A program made the translations under genes and the position numbers. 64,000 bases of DNA from Nitrospinales bacterium (GTDB taxonomy: Bacteria; Nitrospinota; Nitrospinia; Nitrospinales; VA-1). Positions 445 to 64,000 of the stretch are shown piece by piece (the stretch's first letter is position 1; every line of letters starts with the position of its first letter). The notes beneath the pieces are model-generated. The model ran no database searches, was not told the origin of the DNA, and saw only the letters and a list, made by a program, of their open reading frames with translations. Location: contig OZ253496.1 in NCBI GenBank assembly GCA_965262115.1, forward strand, positions 1,540,447 through 1,604,446. Reading direction: 5' to 3'.

Positions 445-3024
<2,580 letters not shown>

Positions 3025-3029
<5 letters not shown>

Positions 3030-3060
3030 AGCTCAATCAGGCCATCCAGCGGGCTGCTGG
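3025..3060. repeat. Direct repeat copy 1: a duplicated thiG 3' end abutting the thiE start
   Basis: ATCATAGCTCAATCAGGCCATCCAGCGGGCTGCTGG matches 3236-3271 at 35 of 36 positions. This copy contains the thiE ATG (3029-3027). Confidence 0.9.
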
Positions 3061-3070
3061 ATGAACAAAT

Positions 3071-3189
3071 CGTCATCGCGAGCGACTGTGTGAAATTCTT
3101 CATTTGCCTTCATGCCCCGAAGGGGTAAAAGGAGCGCGGCGATCCGGGTTTCTGGATTGCTTCGTCGCGGTTAGCTCCTCGCAATGACG
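3071..3189. mobile_element. MITE-like element, family B (terminal inverted repeats CGTCATYGCGAG)
   Basis: It starts CGTCATCGCGAGCGAC and ends GCTCCTCGCAATGACG, which are inverted. The first ~75 nt are nearly identical to 6905-6980. It has no coding capacity. Confidence 0.7.
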
Positions 3190-3235
3190 GGTTATAAAAA
3201 GTTCTTGTTTTTGGCGGCACAGAAGTCATCATAAG

Positions 3236-3271
3236 ATCACAGCTCAATCAGGCCATCCAGCGGGCTGCTGG
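3236..3271. repeat. Direct repeat copy 2: the authentic thiG 3' end
   Basis: ATCACAGCTCAATCAGGCCATCCAGCGGGCTGCTGG. It contains the thiG stop codon (3239-3237). Confidence 0.9.
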
Positions 3272-4019
3272 CTGAGGCATAAAGTTTTTTAGGGATGCGT
3301 CCGGCTTCATAAGCCAGTCGGCCGGACTCCACCGCCATTTTCATAGCTAATGCCATCTTGTACGGCTCTTTCGCGCTGGCGATGGCAGTGTTCATCAAGA
3401 TTCCTGAAACGCCGAGTTCCATGGCGCGGCTGGCATCGGAGGCGGTGCCAACCCCGGCATCGATGATGACCGGCACCTTGACCGCTTCTAAAATCAGTTT
3501 GATGTTATACGGGTTGCGAATGCCGAGGCCGGAGCCGATCGGCGCCGCCAGTGGCATGACTGCGGCGCAACCGATGTCTTCGAGTTTTTTGCAGAGCACG
3601 ACATCGTCGGTGCAATAAGGCAGAACATGAAAGCCGTCTTTGACTAATAGTTTAGAAGCCTCCAGCGTGGCTTCGTTGTCGGGGAACAGAGTTTTCTCGT
3701 CACCGATGACTTCTACCTTGACGATGTTTCCCAGTCTCGCTTCCCGCGCCAGTTCGCAAGTCATCACCGCCTCTTTCAGCGTGTAGCATCCGGCGGTGTT
3801 GGGCAGAAAAGTGTATTTTTTTGGGTCGAGATGATTGAGTATGGAGTCTTTATTTTTGTCCAGCTCAATGCGGCGAACGGCGACCGTCACAATTTCGGCG
3901 CCGGAAATTTCGATAGCCTGTCGGGTTTCGTCGAAGGATTTATATTTCCCGGTCCCTACAATCAGCCTGGACTTGAAGGTCTTGTCGCCAATTTTCATGA
4001 ATTCTTGTTTTGTGTTCAT
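3237..4019 (-). CDS. thiG: Thiazole synthase ThiG
   Basis: 260-aa ORF with typical ThiG sequence ([12 protein letters not shown]..., [14 protein letters not shown]). Confidence 0.95.
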
Positions 4020-4043
4020 ATTGCCAGTTTTAAAAAATTAAAA

Positions 4044-4247
4044 TTAAATTCCACCACCGACGGCATGCACAATTTCAACCTCGTCGTTTTCCTGGATCGG
4101 GGTTGCGGCGTATTTGGATTTTGGAACGACTTGCTGGTTAAGGGCCATGGCGAAATTTGGGGCCTGAATATCGAGCTCGCGAGCCAGGTCCTCAAGGTTC
4201 TGGCTTTTCAGGATTTCGCGGTTTTCGCCATTAATCGTCAGTTTCAT
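4044..4247 (-). CDS. thiS: Sulfur-carrier protein ThiS
   Basis: 67-aa ubiquitin-like ORF directly upstream of thiG. The C-terminus is ...VHAVGGGI, a GG motif with one extra residue. Confidence 0.8.
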   Translation of the reverse strand: MKLTINGENREILKSQNLEDLARELDIQAPNFAMALNQQVVPKSKYAATPIQENDEVEIVHAVGGGI

Positions 4248-4362
4248 AGGATACGCTCCAGAAAAAGGACAAGGTCCAGTCCAAAATATCCGTTAAATCA
4301 ATAAGACAAGACTAAAATCGCGGATCAAATGCAGGAGGGATTCTTAAAGGAAGGGCGGACAT

Positions 4363-4400
4363 AAAAAAAGCCGCATCCCAACCTTGGAGGAAATGCAGCG
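4363..4400 (-). terminator. Intrinsic terminator / attenuator; candidate expression platform of the TPP riboswitch
   Basis: The minus strand reads GCUGCAUUUC-loop-GGGAUGCGGC, about 10 bp including G-U pairs, followed by UUUUUUU. It lies between the aptamer and the thiS start. Confidence 0.55.
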
Positions 4401-4414
4401 TATCTATTGTAAGA

Positions 4415-4510
4415 TGGCCTCACTTCCCTTCGCTGGCATGATCCAGATCAGGTTCAAAGGGTCGTCCTGTTTTAGGACTCTCAGTTCAAAAACGCCCCCA
4501 GTGTTCGTGA
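4415..4510 (-). promoter_or_regulatory. TPP (THI-box) riboswitch aptamer
   Basis: The minus strand contains CUGAGA ... ACCCUUUGAACCUGAUCUGGAUCAUGCCAGCGAAGGGAAG, the canonical THI-element core. It lies upstream of thiS. Confidence 0.9.
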
Positions 4511-4551
4511 CGAGTCTAGGTTATTTCATATTTCCTACAAGTCAACAATTA

Positions 4552-4579
4552 TTGACGTAAAAATAAAAAAGAGTAATAT
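4552..4579 (+). promoter_or_regulatory. Candidate sigma70-type promoter (TTGACG-16 nt-TAATAT) for the TPR/SH3 lipoprotein gene
   Basis: Near-consensus -35 (4552-4557) and -10 (4574-4579) hexamers. The -10 overlaps the ATG at 4578, so the ATG at 4587 would be at or near the transcript 5' end. Confidence 0.35.
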
Positions 4580-5774
4580 GCACATTATGTTTCCCACACT
4601 CCTGTTGCGCGTTTTGTTAATGGTTCTCCTTTTTGGGATCAGTGGTTGCGTCACCCGCTCGGCGCCTGTAAATCCCCATTTTGAGATGCCACCCGAGAAT
4701 CTGCCTAAAGCGCAGCTGGAGCTGTATAACCGCGCCATGGCGCAACTAAAAAACAATCAACTCGACAACTCGATTGATCTCTGGAAACAGTTTTTGCAAA
4801 ACAACCCGAGGTCGTTCAGGGGCCATAACAACCTTGGCATGGCGTTTTATTCCAGTGACCAACTGGCACCCGCCGTGACCTCTTTTGAAACCGCTCTGGC
4901 TCTGGAACCTTTTGACACTAAGATCAAGGATAATCTGAAAAGAGCATTACGGTTTCAGGTCACAATTTTGCGGGAGAACAAGGATTTTGAAACAGCTATC
5001 GAGCATCTCGAAAGGGTGAAAAAACTCACCGATCTTGGGGGAAAAGAGAAAGTGGCGCTGAAGATAGAAACCCTCCAGGACCTTATCTACGAGCAGGTCA
5101 AGCGGGCCAACACGTTGGAAGATTATGAAGCGTTTGTGGCGAAATATCCCGACAACCCGAAAAACTCTGATGAGGCCCGGCGTCTGATTGCCAAAATTAA
5201 GCCGGAAGAATCCCTGTTGGGAGAATTTCCGGAAATGCAGGGAGACATGTTGCCCGACCCTGTGCAACGAACCACCCAGACCCGAGAGGAGGTTTTTGTC
5301 CCCGAGCCGATGGGAGAGAGCCGTGTTCCTATTGCTTCCGCGCCTGTGCGCAGGGAATCGATAGAAATCGTGGCGGAAACAAAACGGTCTGTTGATGAGG
5401 AAGAGTTTTTCGAGGAGACACTGGATGAGAGGTTGGAACCTGTGGTGGAAGAAGCTACGCCAAAATCGTCAGCAATGGAGCGGCCTCAAAGAACCGAACC
5501 GATTGTGGATCCGGATATGGAAATGAAACGGGAAACACCTTCGATTGCCGCTCCGGTCGAGGAACCTGTGCCAACAAAACGGGTGCGGGTCACGACCCAA
5601 AATGCCTCGCTTCGAGTGTGGGCAAAACCGGATGCCCGGTCTACAGTGATGTCCCAGATCCCCAAAAATTCGGTTGTGCCGGTTTTTCAGGATACCGACA
5701 AGTGGTTCCAGATTGAGTACCAAAAAGGCAAGAAGGGCTGGATCTCCAAAAAATATTCCCGGCTGGTAAATTAA
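4578..5774 (+). CDS. Lipoprotein with TPR repeats and a C-terminal SH3b domain
   Basis: 398-aa ORF with signal peptide and lipobox (LLFGISGC). TPR-like N-terminal half, acidic linker, SH3b-like C-terminus (ASLRVWAKPDARS...WFQIEYQKGKKGWISKKY). The start could be 4587. Confidence 0.7.
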   Translation: MHIMFPTLLLRVLLMVLLFGISGCVTRSAPVNPHFEMPPENLPKAQLELYNRAMAQLKNNQLDNSIDLWKQFLQNNPRSFRGHNNLGMAFYSSDQLAPAVTSFETALALEPFDTKIKDNLKRALRFQVTILRENKDFETAIEHLERVKKLTDLGGKEKVALKIETLQDLIYEQVKRANTLEDYEAFVAKYPDNPKNSDEARRLIAKIKPEESLLGEFPEMQGDMLPDPVQRTTQTREEVFVPEPMGESRVPIASAPVRRESIEIVAETKRSVDEEEFFEETLDERLEPVVEEATPKSSAMERPQRTEPIVDPDMEMKRETPSIAAPVEEPVPTKRVRVTTQNASLRVWAKPDARSTVMSQIPKNSVVPVFQDTDKWFQIEYQKGKKGWISKKYSRLVN

Positions 5775-6891: not shown

Positions 6892-6904
6892 CCCCTTCAG
6901 TATT

Positions 6905-7062
6905 CGTCATCGCGAGCGACTGTGTGAAATTCTTCATTTGCCTTCATGCCCCGAAGGGGTAAAAGGAGCGTGGCGATCCAGACTTCTGGATTTACCCTTT
7001 CAGGGCACGAAAGCTTGGGAAGAATATCTCGGCTTCGTCGCTGTTGGCTCCTCGCAATGACG
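6905..7062. mobile_element. MITE-like element, family B, longer copy
   Basis: Same termini as 3071-3189 (CGTCATCGCGAGCGAC ... GCTCCTCGCAATGACG) and a near-identical first ~75 nt. It has an extra ~39-nt internal segment. Confidence 0.7.
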
Positions 7063-7114
7063 TGCTATGCAAGGGTTTCCCTGTCAAGGGGTGTCAAGCT
7101 GGTAGAGGTTTTTT

Positions 7115-16924: not shown

Positions 16925-17095
16925 ATCAGCCAGCGGAGAGCCTCCGCAGGCGTAATGTTTTTCCTTGGCCTTCGTGCCCCGGAGGGGTACAAATTGCAAT
17001 ATCTTTCCCTGGCTAGAAATGATTTTCCCGGTTGGGCAAGCCATTGCCCAGTTGCCTCCACGGCTAGTGGGCGGAGAGCCTCCGCTGCAGGTTTA
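16925..17095. repeat. Cluster of short hairpin repeat modules
   Basis: It contains GCGGAGAGCCTCCGC twice, CTTCGTGCCCCGGAGGGGTA, AATTGCAATATCTTT and GTTGCCTCCACGGCTAGTGG (17051-17070). All of these recur elsewhere in the window. Confidence 0.8.
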
Positions 17096-37539: not shown

Positions 37540-38040
37540 GGGCATCTCAAAAAATTGCTTTTGTACCCCTGTGGGGCATGAAAGCTGATGGGGAATATAA
37601 CAGCCACGAGCGGCCATTATGACAAGGAGACCTTTGCATAAGTCGAAAATCGAGATGCTTCGACATACCCCTCCGGGGCAAGAAGGCAAAGGTCGAGTAT
37701 CACTAGCTCAGCATGACAATACTGGGCCATTTTGTCATGCTGAGGAACAAGGCGACGAAGACGTGACATTTTTCCTTACCCTTCGTGCCCGGCACGGGTA
37801 ATCTCGCTTTGCATAGGCTTGGGGATTTGGGGTTGCCGTCTTTGCGAGGAGGCTTTAGCCGACGCGGCAATCCAGGTTTTGGTTTTTCTCTCGGGGTCAT
37901 GCTGAGCCTGTTGAAGAATCTCGCCTTGCATAGGCCTGGGGATTCTTCACTGCGTTCAGAATGACAAGAAACGCCGGTTTGTCATCCTCAAGGAGCCAAC
38001 GGCGACGAATGATCCGGGGTTACGCAAAGCTCTCTATGAT
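37540..38040. repeat. About 500 bp built only of nested MITE-like and hairpin repeat units
   Basis: Family A terminus GAGACCTTTGCATAAGTCG at 37627, GTCATGCTGAG / CTCAGCATGAC inverted pairs, TACCCC-N3-GGGGCA hairpins, and family B-like termini (GCGAGGAGGC..., ...GGAGCCAACGGCGACGAA). Confidence 0.8.
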
Positions 38041-41782: not shown

Positions 41783-41810
41783 TACAAGAGGGTAAAAGAA
41801 GCGTGGCAAT

Positions 41811-42258
41811 CCAACCCTCCCCCAGCCCCTCCCTATGAAGGGAGGGGAGGCAGATGTTTTAAAATCTTTTCAAAAACTCCATCCAGGTTTTCATAAACAT
41901 CCTGATTGGTAAATCGCAGAAACCGTATCCCCATATCTTCGATGGTTTTCTGCCGGATTTCATCCGATTGGATCGCCGTTCCACTGAAATGAGAGTCTCC
42001 ATCGATTTCAATCGCGAGTTTTGCCGATGGGCAATAAAAATCCAGAATGTATCGGTCGACACTGTATTGTCGCCCAAACTTATATCCACCGGCCTGTCTG
42101 TTTCGCAAAAACTGCCACAAAGCCACTTCCGCTAGCGGCATTTCTTTGCGCAAGGATTCTCTTTTGGTTTTTTCTGTGTTTCTGTTGAAAATTTTTACCA
42201 TAGCTTTCTACATTCCAAGCCCCCCTCCCTTCATAGGGAGGGGCTGGGGGAGGGTTGG
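41811..42258. mobile_element. 448-bp cassette: DUF559 gene bracketed by perfect 37-bp inverted repeats
   Basis: CCAACCCTCCCCCAGCCCCTCCCTATGAAGGGAGGGG (41811-41847) and its exact reverse complement (42222-42258). Confidence 0.75.
41833..42201 (-). CDS. DUF559 (Vsr-like endonuclease fold) protein, copy 1
   Basis: 122-aa ORF (LWQFLRNRQ...YILDFYCPSAKLAIEIDGDSH...RFLRFTNQDV). The stop codon and last codons (LPPLPS) lie inside the left IR. Confidence 0.8.
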   Translation of the reverse strand: MVKIFNRNTEKTKRESLRKEMPLAEVALWQFLRNRQAGGYKFGRQYSVDRYILDFYCPSAKLAIEIDGDSHFSGTAIQSDEIRQKTIEDMGIRFLRFTNQDVYENLDGVFEKILKHLPPLPS

Positions 42259-45192: not shown

Positions 45193-45442
45193 CAGACCTT
45201 TGCGTAAGTCTATAAAGCAGAAAAGCGAGATGCTTCGAGATACCCCTACGGGGCATGAAGTTTAATGAAGAGGATATCACATACCCCTCCTACCCCTCCG
45301 GGGCATGAAGTTAATGGAAGGGGATATAACAGGCTCAAGAAGGCAAAGGTCGAGTATCACTAGCTCAGCATGACAATAAAAGGCTATTTTGTCATTCTGA
45401 GGAGCTATTGCAACGAAGAATCTTGGGTTATGCAAAGGTCTC
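45193..45442. mobile_element. MITE-like element, family A, with about 125 bp of hairpin modules nested inside
   Basis: Ends are CAGACCTTTGCGTAAGTC and TTATGCAAAGGTCTC. The internal arms match the reverse complement of 35152-35278. The middle carries two TACCCC-N3-GGGGCATGAAG...GGATATCAC units. Confidence 0.7.
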
Positions 45443-45491
45443 CTTCTTAGGGGGAAGTTCTTTTAAGTATTACCCTTCCGGGGCACGAAGG

Positions 45492-46181
45492 CTAATGAAG
45501 AGTATCACGTGCGCTTGAGCGTTTGGTCCGCTTTATAGGCAATGCAGTGCTGGCAGCATGTGATACCCCTTCACTTGTTTCATGCCCCGTAGGGGTACGC
45601 CGAGCGGTTAACTTTTTATCCATTTTGCGAATGAGTTCATCAAAACTCTTTTTTTTAATCACCTTGTAAAACTGACTGCGCAAATTGTTCCGCATGCTGA
45701 TCCCGTCCAGAATGACATCCACCACCTGCCATTTACCTCCGGCCAGAGTCAGATGAAAATCGATGTCGACTTCCCCTTCCTTTTCATGAATCACCGTCAG
45801 GGGAACCACAACAACTTTCTTTTTTTCTTTGGTTTTTCCATATTCCAGATCCAGTTCGGCAAAAAATTTCGCAGAACTGGGAAATGCCACATGGACGAAC
45901 AGGTCCCCGAGCAGGGTTTTAAACTTTTCTCGCTCGGGATCACTGCGCTTAGCCCAATGTTTTCCTAAAGCTTTTTTGCTGATTTCTGCGACATTCAGCA
46001 AACCAAGAGCAGATTGGGAATGCTTCTGGTTGTCTGCCTCTTCTAAACCCGAAACATCCGCTTTAATCTGTTGAATTTCTCCCAACAACTTTTTCACCGA
46101 ATCCTGGGGGTCTTTGGTTTCTGCCCAGAGCGGACTGGTGGTCAAAACAATAAAAAGAACAGCACTTAAGGTTTTTTTCAT
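45492..46181 (-). CDS. MlaC/Ttg2D-like periplasmic lipid-binding protein with a repeat-encoded C-terminal tail
   Basis: 229-aa ORF with a signal peptide and an MlaC-like core (ALGKHWAKRSDPEREKFKTLLGDLFVHV...). The last ~38 codons (45492-45608) are translated hairpin-repeat sequence. Confidence 0.6.
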   Translation of the reverse strand: MKKTLSAVLFIVLTTSPLWAETKDPQDSVKKLLGEIQQIKADVSGLEEADNQKHSQSALGLLNVAEISKKALGKHWAKRSDPEREKFKTLLGDLFVHVAFPSSAKFFAELDLEYGKTKEKKKVVVVPLTVIHEKEGEVDIDFHLTLAGGKWQVVDVILDGISMRNNLRSQFYKVIKKKSFDELIRKMDKKLTARRTPTGHETSEGVSHAASTALPIKRTKRSSARDTLH

Positions 46182-48774: not shown

Positions 48775-49490
48775 GGGGCCGACTGCAATAGCTTTCCCTG
48801 GCAAGCAATAGGTTAGCCCGGCCTGATGAGCCGCCGAGGGCAAAAACTTCTCCCCTGACAGGTGGACGTGATATTTTTCCTAAATTTTCGTACCCCGAAG
48901 GGATATTGAGGGGGGTTGATTTTTTAACTCCCTCTTTCTCAAACTCGAACAATAGGAAGACGTTTTGTTCGACGGGTTGGGGTGATTGACCACAAGAAGG
49001 GGGTTTGTCGTCATTGCGAACGAAGTGAAGCAATCCAGTTGCTAGTACCCCAAAACCGTATGAAACACAGCACCAATTCCGACACACCAGTAAATGTCGG
49101 CACCAATAAGGTTCCAAACTGCGGCTGATTTCTCTAAAGGTCATTGCATCACCGCCTTAACCACAAAGAAAAAGAACGCGAGCATGGTGAGGACGGTGTT
49201 CGCCACCGCCGACCAGATCATGATTGTGTGCGCAATATTCCCATCACTAACTTCATGCCCCGTAGGGGGGGTATAATAGTTTTTCCATATCACTTGCCAT
49301 TCTGAGTTTGTAGGTCTGTCATGCTGAGCTAGTGATATTTGATCTTTGAATTCTTGCCCCGGAGGGGTATGTCGAAGCATCTCGATTCTTCGATTTTTCG
49401 ACTTATGCAAAGGGCTCCCTGTCAAGGGAGGGGTGAATGATCTCTTTACAACCTTGGTAACACTGAACTATTTCACAAGGCTCAAGGCCA
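48775..49490. repeat. About 700 bp tract of hairpin and MITE-like repeats, possibly with a gene remnant
   Basis: GGGTTGGGGTGATTGACC (48974-48991), GTCGTCATTGCGAACGAAG...CAATCC, CTTCATGCCCCGTAGGGGGGGTA, GTCATGCTGAGC, and the family A terminus ACTTATGCAAAGGGCTC (about 49401-49417). Confidence 0.75.
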
Positions 49491-49491
49491 G

Positions 49492-49939
49492 CCAACCCTC
49501 CCCCAGCCCCTCCCTATGAAGGGAGGGGAGGCAGATGTTTTAAAATCCTTTCGTAAACTCCATTCAGGTTTTCATAAACATCCTGGTTGGTAAAACGCAG
49601 AAACCGTATTCCCATATTTTCGATAACCTTCTGTCGGACCTGGTCCGATTGTGCAGCCTCTTCGCTAAAATGAGAATCCCCATCGATTTCAATCGCGAGT
49701 TTTGCCGATGGGCAATAAAAATCCAGAATGTATCGATCAACACTGTGTTGCCGCCGAAACTTGTGTCCATTTGCCTGCCTGTTTCGCAAAAACTGCCACA
49801 AAGCCACTTCCGCTGGGGGCATTTCTTTGCGCAAGGACTTTCTCCTGGTTTTTTCTGTATTTTTATTAAAAATTTTTACCATTGTTTTTTTGTTTTTCAT
49901 ATCCCCTCCCTTCATATGGAGGGGTTTGGGGAGGGCTGG
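49492..49939. mobile_element. Second DUF559 cassette with degenerate right inverted repeat
   Basis: The left IR (49492-49528) is identical to copy 1. The right IR (49903-49939) differs at 4 of 37 positions. The length is the same, 448 bp. Confidence 0.7.
49514..49882 (-). CDS. DUF559 (Vsr-like endonuclease fold) protein, copy 2
   Basis: 122 aa from the ATG at 49882. It differs from copy 1 at 18 of 122 residues by manual alignment. The tracked 253-aa ORF is an upstream read-through extension. Confidence 0.75.
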   Translation of the reverse strand: MVKIFNKNTEKTRRKSLRKEMPPAEVALWQFLRNRQANGHKFRRQHSVDRYILDFYCPSAKLAIEIDGDSHFSEEAAQSDQVRQKVIENMGIRFLRFTNQDVYENLNGVYERILKHLPPLPS

Positions 49940-54619: not shown

Positions 54620-54835
54620 ATCGTTTTAGCGGAGAGCCTCCGCTGGCAACCGGCAAGGGCATGAAGGCTAATGATGGGGATATCACAAGCCAAGATAATT
54701 TTTTCTAGCCAGACGTGATATTTTTCTTAAGTCTTCGTGCCCCTGTGATATCCCCTCCGCTAAATTCATGCCCGGAACGGGTAGAAGGGGTAAATAGTTA
54801 TTACCAGTTGCCTCCACGGCTAGTGGTGGGATTTA
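54620..54835. repeat. Cluster of short hairpin repeat modules
   Basis: GCGGAGAGCCTCCGC, GGCATGAAGGCTAATGATGGGGATATCAC, its inverted partner GTGATATTTTTCTTAAGTCTTCGTGCCCC, and GTTGCCTCCACGGCTAGTGG (54807-54826). Confidence 0.8.
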
Positions 54836-56745: not shown

Positions 56746-56897
56746 TCATCTCCTGTTTTTGGTTGATGCATTAATTTTAACAGATTTCCGGCGTAGCCGC
56801 TGGCTGCTCGCCGCAGGGGCAATAGGCCCTTGCTATCTGCCCCCACGGCTAGTGGGGGTTGACTTTATCCACCTAACTTTGATACACCCGGACCACT

Positions 56898-60036: not shown

Positions 60037-60126
60037 AAACCCTTTTACCATCGGATAGTCTGGCTCACTCCACTTGCAGGCTGTTTTAGCCCCTGTTTTC
60101 AGTTGGTTGAGAGGCCAGGTTTTTTT

Positions 60127-62757
60127 ATGACACAGAAATATGTTTATGCCTTCGGCGATGAAAACTCCGAAGGCAAAGCAGGAATGAAAGACCTCTTGGG
60201 AGGGAAAGGTGCCAACCTTGCTGAGATGGCCTCGCTGGGAATACAAGTCCCCCCCGGATTCACCATAAGCACAGAAGCCTGTGTTTACTATTTCAAACAC
60301 AAAAATACGTTCCCTTCTAAATTGTGGGATGAAGTTCTTACCCGTCTGAAAGACCTGGAAAAGACTCTGGGAAGAAAATTTGGCGACCCGGTCAATCCTC
60401 TTCTTGTTTCGGTGCGATCAGGAGCAAGGGTTTCCATGCCCGGGATGATGGATACTGTGCTGAACCTGGGGCTGAATGATATAGCCACCAAAGGTTTGGC
60501 CAAGAGCACCAGGAACGAGTGGTTTGCCCTCGACTCGTATCGCCGTTTCATTTCCATGTTCGGGGATGTGGTGCTGGGGGTTCCTGGAGAGCGGTTCGAG
60601 GCCATCCTCACCAAGAAAAAATTAAAACGTAAAATCGAATTTGATACGGAATTTACCATTCAGGAGTTGAAAGCGCTCATCCGGCAATTCAAAGCTTTGG
60701 TGGTTCGAGTGACGGGGGAAGAGTTTTCAGAAGACCCTATGCAACAGCTGCGCATGGCGATTGAGGCAGTGTTCAATTCCTGGAACACGGATCGTGCGCG
60801 AACGTATAGAAGACTGCATGGAATTCCGCACGAATGGGGCACGGCGGTCACTGTCCAGTCCATGGTGTTTGGCAACATGGGGGAGACTTCCGCCACCGGT
60901 GTTGCGTTCACTCGCAACCCGGCCACAGGGGAAAAGAAATTCTATGGCGAATACATGATCAATGCTCAGGGTGAGGATGTTGTCGCGGGAGTCCGGACGC
61001 CCAGCTCAATCGAAATGCTGGAGCAGGACATGCCGGAGGTGTATCAGGATCTGGTGAAGGTTTACCAGAAACTGGAAAACCATTACAAGGATATGCAGGA
61101 TCTGGAGTTCACCATTGAAAACCAGAAACTGTTTTTATTGCAGACGCGGTCTGGCAAACGCACGGCTGCCTCGGCCATCAAAGTGGCGATTGATATGGTG
61201 AATGAGGGGTTGATCAGTAAACGGGAAGCCCTGATGCGTGTTCCGGCAAACCAATTGGATCAAATCTTTCATCCGATGATTTCCCCCAAGGCGAAATTGA
61301 AATTGCTGGGCCAGGGTTTGGGCGCCTCCCCCGGTGCGGCCGCAGGGAAAATTGTATTCACTCCCGAGCGTGCCCAGGAAATGGCTGAGAAAAAAGAAAA
61401 AGTTATTCTTGTCCGCATGGAGACATCGCCGGAAGATATTCATGGAATGAGTGTGTCGCAGGGAATACTGACCGCCAAGGGGGGCATGACTTCACATGCC
61501 GCAGTGGTGGCCCGGGCCATGGGCAAGCCTTGTGTTTCCGGAGTCAGCACCCTGGATGTTAACGTGAAAAGAAAAAAATGTACGCTTGGGGATGTCCAGC
61601 TAAAGGAGATGGATTCGATCACTCTGGATGGAGCGACAGGCAGGGTGATCCAGGGGGCGGCGCCTTTAATCCAGTCCAGGCTGACCAGTAACTTCACGCG
61701 CATGATGACCTGGGCGGGGGAAGTCCGATCTCTACAAATTCTGGCCAATGCTGATACCCCGCACGATGCATTGATGGCGCGGGATTTTGGAGCGCAGGGG
61801 ATCGGGTTGTGCCGTACGGAACATATGTTTTTTGATGAGGAACGCATTTTCCTGGTACGCAAAATGATCGTTGCCGAGGACGGCAAAGTTCGCGACGAGG
61901 CCTTGAAGAAACTGCTTCCCATCCAACGCGGGGATTTTACCGAAATTTTTAAGGTTATGGATGGGCTTCCGGTCACGGTGCGGTTGCTGGATCCTCCTTT
62001 ACACGAATTTCTGCCCAATTCCCCGGCGGACATTAAAAACCTGGCCAGGGAGATGAAAGTGTCGCCAGCGGCTTTGGGTAAGAAAATCGAAACGATGAAG
62101 GAAGTCAACCCCATGCTTGGGCATCGCGGTTGTCGGCTTGGAATCACCTTCCCGGATATATACCGAATTCAGGTTCGAGCGATTGTTGAAGCGGCCTGCA
62201 GGCAGGCCAAAAAGGGCATTAAAGTTTTTCCGGAAATTATGGTGCCGCTTGTAGCGCATGTTAATGAATTCAAAATTGTTCGTGAACTCATTGTCGAAGT
62301 GGCTGAGGATGCGATTGAAAAAGCCGGTGTGGACCTGAATTATAAAATCGGTACCATGATCGAGCTCCCCCGGGCCGCCCTGACGGCAGATGAAATTGCG
62401 GTGGATGCGGATTTCTTTTCCTTTGGAACCAACGACCTGACACAGACCGCCTTTGGGCTCAGCCGGGATGATTCCGGAAGTTTTCTGAACGAATATCTCG
62501 ATAAAGGCCTGCTGACTCATGACCCGTTTGTGACGGTGGACCAGGAGGGGTTGGGTCAATTGATCAGTATCGCGGTTGAAAAAGGCAAAAAGGTCAAACC
62601 CAATATTCACTTGGGGGTGTGCGGAGAGCACGGAGGAGATCCCGCATCGATCAACTTTTTTAATAAATTAGGTTTGGACTACGTCAGTTGTTCCCCTTAT
62701 CGGGTTCCCACTGCCATACTCGCCGCTGCCCAGGCCGTTATTCAGGAAGACAGTTAA
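60127..62757 (+). CDS. ppdK: Pyruvate, phosphate dikinase
   Basis: The start is taken at ATG 60127 (MTQKYVYAFGD...GGKGANLAEM). Phosphohistidine motif GGMTSHAAVVARAMG and PEP-utiliser C-terminal domain. Confidence 0.95.
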   Translation: MTQKYVYAFGDENSEGKAGMKDLLGGKGANLAEMASLGIQVPPGFTISTEACVYYFKHKNTFPSKLWDEVLTRLKDLEKTLGRKFGDPVNPLLVSVRSGARVSMPGMMDTVLNLGLNDIATKGLAKSTRNEWFALDSYRRFISMFGDVVLGVPGERFEAILTKKKLKRKIEFDTEFTIQELKALIRQFKALVVRVTGEEFSEDPMQQLRMAIEAVFNSWNTDRARTYRRLHGIPHEWGTAVTVQSMVFGNMGETSATGVAFTRNPATGEKKFYGEYMINAQGEDVVAGVRTPSSIEMLEQDMPEVYQDLVKVYQKLENHYKDMQDLEFTIENQKLFLLQTRSGKRTAASAIKVAIDMVNEGLISKREALMRVPANQLDQIFHPMISPKAKLKLLGQGLGASPGAAAGKIVFTPERAQEMAEKKEKVILVRMETSPEDIHGMSVSQGILTAKGGMTSHAAVVARAMGKPCVSGVSTLDVNVKRKKCTLGDVQLKEMDSITLDGATGRVIQGAAPLIQSRLTSNFTRMMTWAGEVRSLQILANADTPHDALMARDFGAQGIGLCRTEHMFFDEERIFLVRKMIVAEDGKVRDEALKKLLPIQRGDFTEIFKVMDGLPVTVRLLDPPLHEFLPNSPADIKNLAREMKVSPAALGKKIETMKEVNPMLGHRGCRLGITFPDIYRIQVRAIVEAACRQAKKGIKVFPEIMVPLVAHVNEFKIVRELIVEVAEDAIEKAGVDLNYKIGTMIELPRAALTADEIAVDADFFSFGTNDLTQTAFGLSRDDSGSFLNEYLDKGLLTHDPFVTVDQEGLGQLISIAVEKGKKVKPNIHLGVCGEHGGDPASINFFNKLGLDYVSCSPYRVPTAILAAAQAVIQEDS

Positions 62758-62802
62758 ACGCTGGGTTTTATGTGGGACGAGTGAAATGCCGGGAAAAAGG
62801 TT
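62734..62802. repeat. 69-bp direct repeat, left copy (ppdK 3' end plus 45 nt downstream)
   Basis: GCCGTTATTCAGGAAGACAGTTAAACGCTGGGTTTTATGTGGGACGAGTGAAATGCCGGGAAAAAGGTT is identical to 63882-63950. Confidence 0.95.
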
Positions 62803-62918
62803 CCGATTATATTCGTTCCAACGTTTCCTTATGGCCGCTTCAGGGATTTGTCTCTCTTGATCCTAACGGGTCAATTCACCCCAGGATATTTATACAAAGA
62901 TGGAAAAGAGAGGGGGAG

Positions 62919-62946
62919 TTGACAGGTGTTGTCATAAGTGACAACA
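62919..62946 (+). promoter_or_regulatory. Candidate promoter and operator of the toxin-antitoxin cassette
   Basis: TTGACA (62919-62924) is followed by the perfect palindrome TGTTGTCA-TAAG-TGACAACA (62927-62946), ending 7 nt before the toxin ATG. Confidence 0.4.
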
Positions 62947-62953
62947 TGGTTTT

Positions 62954-63299
62954 ATGTTAGAGACTGAAAGAGATATTGAATGGATTGTTGCCGCTTTTAA
63001 GGAATTTAAAAAGTTTCCTGATTTTGCGAAACGAAAAATTCTTGTAGCTCTAACCGATGCGGCTAAAGGTACAACTGCCGATATTGCCAAACCTGAAAGG
63101 GCTAGGGGCAGGCATTTTTGAGGTGGCCCTGAAATACAGAACGGATGCTTATAGAACTGTGTATGCGGTTCAGTTTGATAAAAAAATATGGGTGGTGCAT
63201 GCGTTTAAGAAGAAATCGAAAAAGGTAATTAAAACCCCGAAAAAAGAGATTGATTTAATCAAGACTCGCATTAAGTTTTTAAAGGAGCAAAGGAAATGA
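62954..63299 (+). pseudogene. HigB/RelE-superfamily toxin (phage Gp49-like, DUF891-type), frameshifted
   Basis: The ATG at 62954 gives MLETERDIEWIVAAFKEFKKFPDF...ADIAKP. The frame then shifts to ...LKGLGAGIFEVALKYRTDAYRTVYAVQFDKKIWVVHAFKKKSKK..TPKKEIDL (ORF 63057-63299). There is one surplus nt near 63085-63090. Confidence 0.65.
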
Positions 63300-63637
63300 C
63301 CGATAAAAATGAAGATTTTGAAATCGTGCGCGGAAGTGGGAACGTTTTCCGCGATGTTGGGTTTCCCAATCCAGATGTGGAACAGGCCAAAGCACTTTTG
63401 AGCGCCGAAATTATTAAAGCCCTGAATAGCCGGAAATTATCCGTACGTAAAGCCCAGACTCTAACCAAAGTACAGGCCGCAGATTTTTCCCGCATCCGGA
63501 ACGCAGACCTTAAAAGATTTACTATAGACCGTTTGATGACTATTCTAAACAAGCTGGACCCTGAAATGGATGTCAAAATGGAGTTCAAAAGCGGCTCTAA
63601 AAAAAGACCCCCCTTGCAACAGGAAGCAGCTCTTTAA
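63296..63637 (+). CDS. HigA-like XRE-family HTH antitoxin
   Basis: 113-aa ORF overlapping the toxin by 4 nt (RGSGNVFRDVGFPNPDVEQAK...LSVRKAQTLTKVQAADFSRIRN), typical of antitoxins paired with Gp49-like toxins. Confidence 0.7.
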   Translation: MTDKNEDFEIVRGSGNVFRDVGFPNPDVEQAKALLSAEIIKALNSRKLSVRKAQTLTKVQAADFSRIRNADLKRFTIDRLMTILNKLDPEMDVKMEFKSGSKKRPPLQQEAAL

Positions 63638-63881
63638 CCAAGCTCCGGTGTGGCGCGGTAGATGACCGGTGGGATCGTACGACATCATATGCGAAAACGG
63701 CTCACTTGGAGAGTGATCGGGAAAAAGAAATTGATAAGGTAGAAAGTGTCTATGCTTCTTAACTAACTGCCCACTGATTCAGGGGAAGTTCACTTAACAG
63801 GAAAATGCTACTTTTAAACCGTACAACTTATGGGGAGAAGGTCATTAAGCTTTATTTTTGAGGAGGGTTCTATGAAGAAAA

Positions 63882-63950
63882 GCCGTTATTCAGGAAGACA
63901 GTTAAACGCTGGGTTTTATGTGGGACGAGTGAAATGCCGGGAAAAAGGTT
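63882..63950. repeat. 69-bp direct repeat, right copy
   Basis: Identical to 62734-62802. The sequence after it (GACTTCGTTTTTGCC...) is presumably the original ppdK downstream region. Confidence 0.95.
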
Positions 63951-64000
63951 GACTTCGTTTTTGCCGGTCACCATAATGAAAAATTCTTTAATTTGAAAGA

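Follow-up and report, generated by a model that had tools for sequence, protein, structure and literature searches.

Roughly 1.08 kb of foreign DNA carrying a HigB(Gp49)/HigA(HTH_37) toxin-antitoxin (TA) pair appears to have entered a marine Nitrospina genome between ppdK and the promoter of the gene that follows it, by an insertion in which a 69-bp stretch of resident sequence was duplicated on either side of the newcomer. [quoted passage not shown]

The ppdK end and the cassette between its two copies

A repeat search across the whole 64-kb window (the entire stretch of DNA analysed) recovered a 69-nt direct repeat in two copies that are 69/69 identical and stand apart from the multi-copy repeat families of the window; chance cannot have produced a perfect 69-mer within 64 kb. 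Each copy comprises the last 24 nt of the ppdK coding sequence, TAA stop codon (62755-62757) included, and 45 nt of spacer. Both carry the strain's own variant (TTTTATGTG), and their edges are sharp, with similarity stopping at both boundaries. The features of the locus, all on the forward strand, are:

60127-62757, +, ppdK (pyruvate, phosphate dikinase), intact, from the ORF list; start ATG at 60127 or TTG at 60103
62734-62802, +, left 69-bp repeat copy, the true ppdK 3′ end and 45 nt of native spacer
62803-63881, +, insert of 1079 bp, absent from 10/10 related loci examined
62872-62908, +, leader motif adjoining the TA promoter on its upstream side, common to the plasmid-like contig L101 (2616-2655)
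62919-62953, +, predicted TA promoter and operator (hairpin and promoter scan)
62954-63299, +, Gp49/HigB-like toxin pseudogene (Pfam PF05973; alignment with intact 115-aa relatives)
63296-63637, +, HTH_37 antitoxin (XRE-type, HigA-like), intact (PF13744, E=2e-15)
63638-63881, +, right flank of the insert, without a match anywhere and without structure
63882-63950, +, right 69-bp repeat copy, an orphan ppdK end and spacer
63949-63977, +, promoter-like site TTGACT-17-CATAAT of the downstream epimerase-family gene (promoter scan, 10/12 matches)

The 876-aa ppdK product is an exact member of a 90% cluster named pyruvate, phosphate dikinase [Nitrospinaceae], and its orthologues in Nitrospina MAGs are 96-68% identical. 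Rfam families, tRNA included, gave no match in 62600-64000 at E<=1. As the 50 nt past the right repeat are the native post-ppdK sequence of relatives, the insertion is wholly bounded inside the window. The -35 hexamer of the downstream promoter-like site takes its TT from the right repeat copy, and the predicted promoter and its upstream A-tract thus stay intact after the duplication.

The insert has a GC content of 42% against 49% for the window, and Gp49 and HTH_37 are the only Pfam domains within it. Its leader motif matches contig L101, which carries ParA, RepA_C and iterons, at 36/37 nt positions with one 3-nt indel, a score reached by 0/200 shuffles. Given this shared motif and the difference in GC, the insert is, on sequence grounds, foreign and probably plasmid-derived; no donor sequence was found. 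The TA promoter hexamer TTGACA (62919-62924) is followed by an operator palindrome, TGTTGTCA-TAAG-TGACAACA (62927-62946), that is invariant in the related cassettes L090, L092 and L083. The toxin ORF is split across two frames (62954-63121 and 63057-63299) because 2 nt present in the intact 115-aa relatives are missing between 63093 and 63094, and restoring two bases recovers the full Gp49 profile (positions 1-90/90, 71 bits). The antitoxin start overlaps the toxin stop (ATGA, 63296-63299), and of its 7976 homologues the nearest come from marine metagenomes and Nitrospinaceae MAGs. Thus the locus has the overlapping toxin-first operon and palindromic operator of a type II HigB/HigA-like system with a toxin frame that is broken, and, with the toxin dead, the antitoxin/repressor is the sole part able to function. 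Beyond about 63650 the right flank has no homology to the relatives; it ends with GAGGAGG (63860-63866), 5 nt, an ATG (63872) and 7 nt to the junction, which looks like the truncation of a putative donor gene after its first 10 nt.

The original prediction had described a stretch of 24 nt of ppdK and 45 nt downstream recurring without mismatch, which proved exact to the base, and an interval of 1079 bp holding only a frameshifted Gp49/HigB-like toxin, an XRE-type antitoxin and their own promoter, with which the ORF and Pfam content agrees. It had also proposed that recombination between the repeats would excise the cassette precisely, something the structure would allow. Were a circle formed by a recombinase, its junction would read ...GAAGAAAA, the 69-mer, and CCGATT...

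Related loci and other bracketed cassettes

We compared ten Nitrospina/Nitrospinaceae loci, six of which align through the site, and found the empty arrangement in all ten. In the three closest (L001, L124 and L125) a single 69-mer, with 3, 5 and 5 substitutions, respectively, runs straight into GACTTCG..., and the DNA flanking it is about 95% identical; L002, L003, L004, L006 and L012 are empty too, and L008 and L009 keep the ppdK-to-epimerase synteny. The downstream promoter-like TTGACT-17-CATAAT is kept in L001-L004, L012, L124 and L125, and the epimerase-family gene was seen in L003, L008, L009 and L124. Judged from these alignments, the insertion is recent and lineage-specific, with duplication of resident sequence, because all ten loci are empty and the closest three hold a single, diverged 69-mer. 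The comparison with relatives that had been suggested earlier as a check thus upheld a real insertion, and the suggested recency is borne out by copies that are identical to each other while relatives differ from them at 3-5 positions. However, gene conversion could also have made the copies identical, as could cycles of integration and excision that homogenised an attP within one lineage.

The empty loci also bear on an origin in two steps, in which slippage would have produced a 69-bp tandem duplication and the cassette would later have been inserted exactly at the joint. It would leave the same final structure and has nothing more specific in its favour, but a tandem 69-mer is present in no relative, and two rare events at the same base, recurring at three other loci, would be needed; we consider it very improbable. 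Least credible of all is an artefact of assembly or of chimeric reads in the source MAG. The source is an assembly of an uncultured organism, with the antitoxin and ppdK on one 2,684,264-bp contig, and a sequencing error could account for the toxin frameshift; against this, the structure is internally consistent, a complete operon set between stretches of native sequence, it lies at no evident contig end, and the 2-nt deletion removes CA or GA, i.e., more than part of a homopolymer run. Moreover, independent assemblies made by other methods (L090, L101 and L105) show the same kind of bracket.

These three brackets consist of unrelated repeats of variable length and share no common core. L090 has a 26-nt perfect repeat on a contig composed of 4 + 26 + 987 + 26 + 4 nt; that assembly used k=31 (PMC12424806), and we infer that the layout is the k=31 graph product of coexisting filled and empty alleles. 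The L101 repeat is 73 nt long at 86% identity. L105 carries a RES/Xre pair, unrelated to Gp49/HTH_37, at the 3′ end of ddl, bracketed by 71 nt of which 53 nt are perfect, with two mismatches near the repeat edges. Flanking repeats are absent from the majority of related TA cassettes (about 20 contexts), which counts against our preferred reading.

Modes of entry

No recombinase gene was found between the repeats among the ORFs or by Pfam, as had been noted originally. Searches of the insert for a transposase (Pfam) and of its ends for terminal inverted repeats were likewise negative, and an IS or DNA transposon was rejected on these two counts together with the 69-bp duplication. An integron gene cassette was also rejected: the right flank has no attC-like fold (fold z-score 0.04, same as shuffled sequence) and the repeats on either side come from the host. 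To the left and right the gene order, as read from the sequence, is native, which argues against an integron array.

The main rival explanation takes the 69-mers as attL/attR of an integrative element that entered at the ppdK 3′ end and carried a replacement gene end, either one from which internal deletion removed the integrase and most of the cargo or a small CIME-like element mobilised in trans, with the self-stabilising TA module alone left. We regard it as unlikely, if still the strongest of the competitors. TA modules typically serve to stabilise integrative elements, and direct repeats that take in the 3′ end of a conserved housekeeping gene, stop codon included, while leaving it intact are a classic tyrosine-integrase signature, which weighs against our preferred reading, as does the same geometry in L105 at the ddl 3′ end, where the two mismatches near the edges would also be compatible with a copy that was imported and had diverged slightly. 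Site-specific recombination is, besides, one of three repeat sources listed by Furuta et al. (PMC2853133). However, a recombinase is missing both inside the repeats and adjoining them, and the would-be attB is empty in all ten related loci, none of which has another element at the site. The closest related cassettes have only 62901/62918-63638 in common and differ in their termini, and on the right the insert breaks off 10 nt into a donor ORF. Fast-changing spacer makes up two thirds of the repeat (45/69 nt), yet both copies match the strain's own variant exactly, and the brackets of other TA cassettes (26, 71 and 73 nt) are unrelated to this one. Given the sharp edges, the strain's own variant, the variable termini, the empty sites and the unrelated brackets, in-situ target duplication fits better than att sites. 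Thus, of the original proposal of attL/attR left by a site-specific or homology-driven insertion that preserves the host gene end, the preserved gene end stands and site-specific recombination finds no support in that form.

Another route would be Campbell-type integration, in which a circle or plasmid with the TA operon and a previously captured 69-bp segment recombined into the chromosome by a single RecA crossover. A 69-bp segment offers sufficient length for RecA to act on, the plasmid-like L101 shares the TA leader motif, and capture of the segment from the same strain would be expected to give perfect identity. We nevertheless hold this to be improbable, since it requires an unexplained prior capture of exactly that segment and would have to occur independently at four unrelated targets; moreover, such a circle or plasmid was looked for and not found, and an ORF predicted to span the joint of the circle is without homologues.

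An insertion with long target duplication, our preferred reading, places the locus beside a class for which Furuta et al. 2010 set repeats of >30 bp, an insert of <20 kb and a single copy in a related genome. Here the repeats are 69 nt, a single contiguous copy is present in L001, L124 and L125, the 1079 bp hold no mobile-element genes, and the repeat is neither a tRNA gene nor multi-copy (two copies in the 64-kb window); the cargo, however, is a type II TA pair and not R and M genes. The ancestral locus had ppdK, the 45-nt spacer, TTGACT-17-CATAAT and the epimerase-family gene, with one 69-mer. A linear fragment with arbitrary ends, its right end 10 nt inside a donor ORF, would have been joined to it at two chromosomal points 69 bp apart, presumably by illegitimate, recombinase-independent end joining; the two points may have been the ends of a filled-in staggered break or have lain on the two sisters of a broken fork. 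In the outcome the ppdK 3′ end is intact on the left and the downstream promoter on the right, so this event could persist, whereas an insertion that was flush or removed sequence would have damaged one of them. While the toxin was active, cells losing the cassette through repeat recombination would have died, and such killing would explain why persisting repeat-flanked inserts tend to be addiction modules (TA or restriction-modification, RM). With the toxin inactivated by its 2-nt deletion, the cassette would now be an orphan, self-regulated antitoxin, which RecA-type recombination between the 69-mers could delete precisely.

These considerations suggest a two-part selective filter, whereby the duplication shields the gene end and the downstream promoter and addiction shields the insert from repeat-mediated deletion. 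For the host genome the consequence is small, i.e., an orphan antitoxin/repressor downstream of ppdK in a cassette that can be lost precisely. More broadly, the structure offers a search image for gene gain that pipelines miss: a small indel with repeats of at least 25 bp that are single copy in the empty allele.

Comparison with known systems

Long duplications around self-stabilising units have been known since 2000, for RM systems only (Gene 259:99 (2000); Furuta, Abe & Kobayashi 2010, PMC2853133; Mruk & Kobayashi 2013, PMC3874152), and the favoured idea for their common cause was a double-strand break by the cargo's own nuclease (Furuta et al., PMC2853133). A literature search for this signature around TA modules found no paper. 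Gp49/HigB and RES toxins are not, to our knowledge, known to cleave DNA, and a break of that kind therefore cannot apply here. The same signature around such TA pairs points to host repair or replication processes. One could go further and postulate that addiction modules, TA and RM alike, share one entry pathway with long variable duplications, mainly at gene 3′ ends and independent of cleavage; we think this rather doubtful, but if it were true, the four brackets (26, 69, 71 and 73 nt; two TA families; two at housekeeping 3′ ends) would be footprints of the pathway, and the filled and empty alleles proposed for L090 would mean that it is active in natural populations.

TA cassettes exist in chromosomal integrons, e.g., higBA in the Vibrio superintegron, and they resemble this locus in being compact mobile TA operons bracketed by repeats; unlike them, it uses host target sequence as repeats and shows neither an attC-like fold nor an array. 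We know of no transposase whose stagger approaches 69-73 nt. As in transposon target-site duplications, including those of IS1630 of Mycoplasma (variable, 19-26 bp; cited in PMC2853133), the target was duplicated at insertion, and the 26 nt of L090 fall within the IS1630 range, but transposase and terminal inverted repeats are lacking here. With HigB/HigA type II systems (PF05973 + PF13744) the cassette has in common the toxin-first order, the gene overlap and the palindromic promoter operator, and it differs in its inactivated toxin. CIME-like elements, as described in streptococcal ICE/IME/CIME work, are bracketed by att sites, which lie at housekeeping-gene 3′ ends. The ppdK locus is similar in having a gene 3′ end in the repeats, an intact host gene, a small cargo and no integrase; it is dissimilar in that relatives hold no intact related element at the site, the termini vary and the repeated block is mostly strain-specific spacer.

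The closest parallel in structure is with RM units, which are inserted without mobility genes and with long variable target duplications of 46 to about 400 bp that in some cases extend over a gene 3′ end, as in the 46-bp examples of H. influenzae (PMC2853133; PMC3874152). Common to both are a small unit devoid of mobility genes, direct repeats of tens to hundreds of bp that vary in length, are unrelated in sequence and correspond to sequence present once where a related genome lacks the insert, the overlap of some repeats with the 3′ end of the upstream gene, and a cargo that is an addiction-type module, which in the present case is a type II toxin-antitoxin pair and not an RM system.

Structure of the bracketed cassette

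The 69-nt direct repeat around the toxin-antitoxin (TA) cassette (62734-62802 and 63882-63950) has sharp edges, is identical at 69 of 69 positions by repeat search, and a whole-window repeat search found no third copy within the 64 kb. As the ORF call places the ppdK stop codon (TAA) at 62755-62757, the repeat consists of the final 24 coding nucleotides of ppdK and a 45-nt spacer. The original prediction had described perfect 69-bp direct repeats, built of 24 nt of the ppdK end and 45 nt beyond it, around 1079 bp carrying a frameshifted Gp49/HigB-like toxin and an antitoxin with their own promoter and no integrase, and all of this is borne out by the repeat search, the ORF end, Pfam matches, ORFs and a promoter scan; a recombinase is absent from inside the insert.

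Features of the insert (window coordinates)
62919-62924: TTGACA of the TA promoter
62927-62946: TA operator, perfect palindrome TGTTGTCA-TAAG-TGACAACA
62954-63121 and 63057-63299: Gp49/HigB-like toxin split over two frames (Pfam PF05973)
63296-63637: intact HTH_37 antitoxin (PF13744), its start overlapping the toxin stop
244 bp: unassignable remainder of the insert

Alignment with intact 115-aa relatives traces the toxin frameshift to a 2-nt deletion at 63093/63094, and putting two bases back restores a full-length Gp49 match. NCBIfam offers no name for toxin or antitoxin, and no Rfam family of structured RNA was found in or near the insert. As cargo this is a HigBA-type module of an ordinary kind, in decay.

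Neither terminal inverted repeats at the insert ends nor an attC-like fold were found, the right flank being without structure. The right end reads GAGGAGG, 5 nt and ATG AAG AAA A, and passes directly into the 69-mer; judged from sequence it is a putative ribosome-binding site with the start of a gene that the junction severs after 10 nt, and it looks like an arbitrary breakpoint, unlike the terminus of a dedicated mobile element. The insertion made two new junction sequences, GGGAAAAAGGTTCCGATTATATTCG and CTATGAAGAAAAGCCGTTATTCAGG, and a circle or tandem form would be expected to show ...CTATGAAGAAAA + 69-mer + CCGATTATATTCG... It also gave birth to a chimeric 26-codon ORF (63872-63952) with a strong Shine-Dalgarno sequence (GAGGAGG, 5 nt, ATG), which crosses the duplicated ppdK end in a different frame and stops at a TGA at the junction of repeat and unique sequence. 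A circular permutation, in which the right end (RBS-ATG-AAGAAAA) joined to the left end yields a 55-aa ORF ending at the toxin start, was considered and rejected for want of a homologue; of the three frames of the insert's left flank, one contains no stop at all and another is open over most of its length, so this ORF is probably a coincidence. Campbell-type integration of a circle by homologous crossover at a previously captured 69-mer is improbable, as it needs a prior capture that stays unexplained and predicts an ORF across the circle junction that has no homologue.

Empty sites in relatives and what the duplication preserves

Relatives of the host were found in public genomes with the ppdK C-terminus (399 residues) as query. 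The best matches were Nitrospinales/Nitrospina MAGs (96-87% identity), which shows the window, by sequence affinity, to be DNA of a marine Nitrospina. The closest locus by ppdK identity (L001, flanking DNA ~95.6% identical to the window) holds a single 69-mer with 3 substitutions, continuous with GACTTCGTTTTTGCCGGTCACCATAAT..., i.e., the same sequence as that 3' of the window's right copy. Two others (L124 and L125), ~95% identical to the window over up to 6.4 kb, have the single-copy empty arrangement with 5 substitutions in the 69-mer, L002, L003, L004, L006 and L012 are likewise without the insert, and in the more distant L008 and L009 the same epimerase-family gene directly follows ppdK. 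Given that the relatives are empty and carry the 69-mer in single copy, the cassette is an insertion in the window's lineage only, and the duplicated 69-mer is resident chromosomal DNA rather than a conserved site borne by an element; a tandem duplication already in place is a very improbable source of the two copies, both of which carry strain-specific sequence. Had the two copies existed since these relatives split off, ~3 differences would be expected between them at a background divergence of ~4-5%. None is observed, and the event must therefore be recent unless gene conversion homogenised the copies. An empty site in relatives, the check proposed in the original prediction, was thus found at 10 of 10 related loci examined, and its choice between a recent event and homogenisation falls, with 0/69 differences, to the former, barring gene conversion. 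These alignments confirm the insertion as real and, by the apparent lack of divergence, recent.

The original prediction had further read the repeats as attL/attR-like. In the form weighed here, the main rival, they would border an integrative element whose integrase was lost or which is mobilised in trans. The insertion itself and the intact ppdK end stand, but the att nature of the repeats we consider unlikely. The repeat does cover the end of a housekeeping gene both here and in L105 (a locus of an unrelated high-GC organism), a classic integrase signature; however, the site is empty in all ten relatives examined, related cassettes do not share the insert termini, an ORF is cut at the right end, and fast-changing spacer identical to that of the window's own strain makes up two thirds of the identity block.

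A promoter-like TTGACT-17-CATAAT with an upstream A-tract is common to all close relatives 3' of ppdK, and the right edge of the 69-mer cuts its -35 hexamer between TT and GACT. Because the 69-mer stands on both sides of the insert, the left copy completes ppdK and the right copy gives the next gene's promoter its TT and upstream region; both flanking functions are kept. A flush insertion at either repeat edge would have left ppdK short of 8 codons or the predicted promoter altered. This site (window 63949-64000; L003 11224-11310) is sigma-70-like, strongly conserved in several Nitrospina relatives, and has the ppdK stop on one side and a GC-rich hairpin (CTGGCC...GGCCAG) on the other; should that hairpin be the terminator of ppdK, it is placed beyond the promoter of the following gene.

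Cassette relatives and other bracketing repeats

At 42% GC the insert lies below the window's 49%. Its antitoxin has thousands of homologues, the closest (89-78% identity) coming from short contigs of marine metagenomes and from contigs labelled Nitrospinaceae or Nitrospinae. The DNA common to all close relatives runs from promoter to antitoxin stop only (~62901/62918-63638), and the sequence outside this core varies locus by locus. The insert flanks beyond it have no homologue in any relative examined and no second copy in the window or any examined locus; the insert ends are arbitrary and non-conserved. The whole 1079-bp insert matched no plasmid DNA, and scans of viral DNA gave no match.

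Contexts of related TA modules
L084-L086, L091, L093: adjoining lnt
L081: defence-island-like region with an MmeI-type enzyme and a resolvase
L101: plasmid-like contig with ParA, RepA_C, iterons, other TA pairs and Dcm/Vsr

A 37-nt leader motif just 5' of the TA promoter (62872-62908) recurs as a near-exact copy in L101 (2616-2655), and the comparable leader of L090, the closest DNA relative of the window module (87.6% identity), matches L101 ~100 nt further along (2719-2758). These segments of ~40 nt lie immediately 5' of the TA promoters in the window and L090, their L101 counterparts just after replication genes, and the matches link both cassettes to plasmid-like donors. The sole difference between the window and L101 leader copies is a 3-nt indel, in frame in one reading (QFTP[L]GYLYKDGK). 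Among antitoxin relatives, most of the toxin gene is gone in L084-L089, where DNA homology begins only at 63240, and in L123 a BrnT/BrnA pair immediately precedes a related antitoxin; it thus seems that orphan antitoxins and mosaic TA arrays are common in this family.

A scan for exact two-copy direct repeats across 424 kb of examined loci, combined with further repeat searches, revealed three further TA cassettes with bracketing repeats, L090, L101 and L105. L090, a Logan contig of 1047 nt, consists of 4 nt, a 26-nt repeat, 987 nt, the identical 26 nt and 4 nt. Logan contigs are built on a de Bruijn graph with k=31 (PMC12424806), and ends lying k-1-26 = 4 nt outside both repeats are as expected if filled and empty alleles coexist; a circle would predict identical 30-nt ends. 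The contig's shape thus indicates that both alleles were probably present in one sample, the predicted empty site being CTGGAAACCTGATAAAACTCATGAAGTGAATTCC. The 26-nt repeat may end a gene (...NLIKLMK*). In L101 a Gp49/HTH_37 pair (3651-4342) lies between 73-nt repeats (86% identity; 3526-3598 and 4341-4413); these contain a hairpin, CTTTCCC-TTGA-GGGAAAG, and the contig's four iterons, 22 nt each, are at 2272-2361. L105 has a different TA family between 71-nt repeats (953-1023 and 2035-2105); these disagree at 2 positions and share a perfect core of 53 nt, and the right copy is the genuine ddl 3' end, stop codon included.

Features of L105
1092-1556, minus strand: RES toxin (PF08808)
within 1553-2143, minus strand: Xre/MbcA/ParS antitoxin (PF09722, PF20432)
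2041-3009, minus strand: ddl

The four bracketing repeats are of unrelated sequence and differing length, i.e., the arrangement recurs with variable lengths at unrelated targets. An assembly artefact is extremely improbable, as similar brackets occur in independent assemblies made by other methods. In database records the window's antitoxin and ppdK share a single contig of 2.68 Mb. No bracketing repeat was present in ~20 other contexts of related antitoxins. Three junction motifs, AAGGTTCCGAT at the window's left junction (similar to the L101 repeat start), ATTCAG near the gene-side repeat edge in the window and L105, and GTGAA ending the L090 and L101 repeats, were given no weight, being post hoc, short and inconsistent across cases.

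Other repeats were rejected as brackets, that of L009 being a pair of paralogous genes and the window's other long ones multi-copy REP-like elements or a segmental repeat. The window holds several REP/MITE-like families of short interspersed intergenic repeats (3090-3127, 6924-6961, 16952-16989, 37564-37800, 45241-45595, 48868-49369, 54647-54781 and others), one with the core TACCCCTNCGGGGCATGAAG and its complement (at least 7 copies), another with the core CCACGGCTAGTGGG (4 copies). Two direct repeat pairs, 300 nt at 86% (41805-42104 and 49486-49785) and 68 nt at 93% (37679-37746 and 45336-45403), have near-equal spacings of 7681 and 7657 nt, which suggests either paired repeat elements or a segmental duplication whose copies have diverged. 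Direct repeats of ~90-165 nt (3025-3195 against 3236-3275 and 6904-7068; 89-96% identity) enclose 3.8 kb of what look like core genes, including a thiG-like one; they hold a member of an interspersed family and are thus probably repeat elements, not a target duplication. L001 has its own 2.1-kb insertion of two genes upstream of glyQ (3150-5300; ~90 nt in the window, 56766-56857), coding for an AAA_21/AAA_15 ATPase and a DUF4276 protein; it looks defence-like, and no flanking repeats were found there.

Mode of insertion and known systems

We postulate, with a probability of about 0.5, that the cassette was inserted with duplication by illegitimate joining and kept by two selective filters. A linear fragment from a plasmid-like donor would have been joined illegitimately at two chromosomal points 69 bp apart, and the duplication would arise if these were the ends of a filled-in staggered break or lay on two sister duplexes at a broken fork. 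In a compact genome, survivors would be those whose offset duplicated, rather than deleted, the gene end and promoter. An insert between long direct repeats would moreover be unstable, except where losing it is lethal, as with an active TA or restriction-modification (RM) system. Together these filters could explain why such events appear with addiction modules. The toxin has been inactivated since, the cassette now probably encoding only a self-regulated antitoxin/repressor, and homologous recombination between the 69-mers could delete it precisely.

Furuta, Abe and Kobayashi (PMC2853133) distinguish three sources of direct repeats around such units: site-specific recombination, long target duplication, and an insert that lands by chance between repeats already present. 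Long target duplication they recognize by repeats >30 bp, an insert <20 kb that carries no mobile-element genes, and a repeat found only once in the insert-free genome, a description given again by Mruk and Kobayashi (PMC3874152). Their cases have repeats of 46-47 bp to ~400 bp, those of H. influenzae including an overlap with the 3' end of the upstream gene, and a property common to RM systems, e.g., double-strand breakage, is suggested to be involved. The window insert agrees with long target duplication in every structural respect and departs from it in cargo, because it carries a type II TA pair. Our full-text search found no paper reporting this signature for TA modules, although one may exist outside the literature searched. 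What stands out is the insertion mode, a known signature with a cargo class for which we found no earlier description, and one that recurs in three other cassettes.
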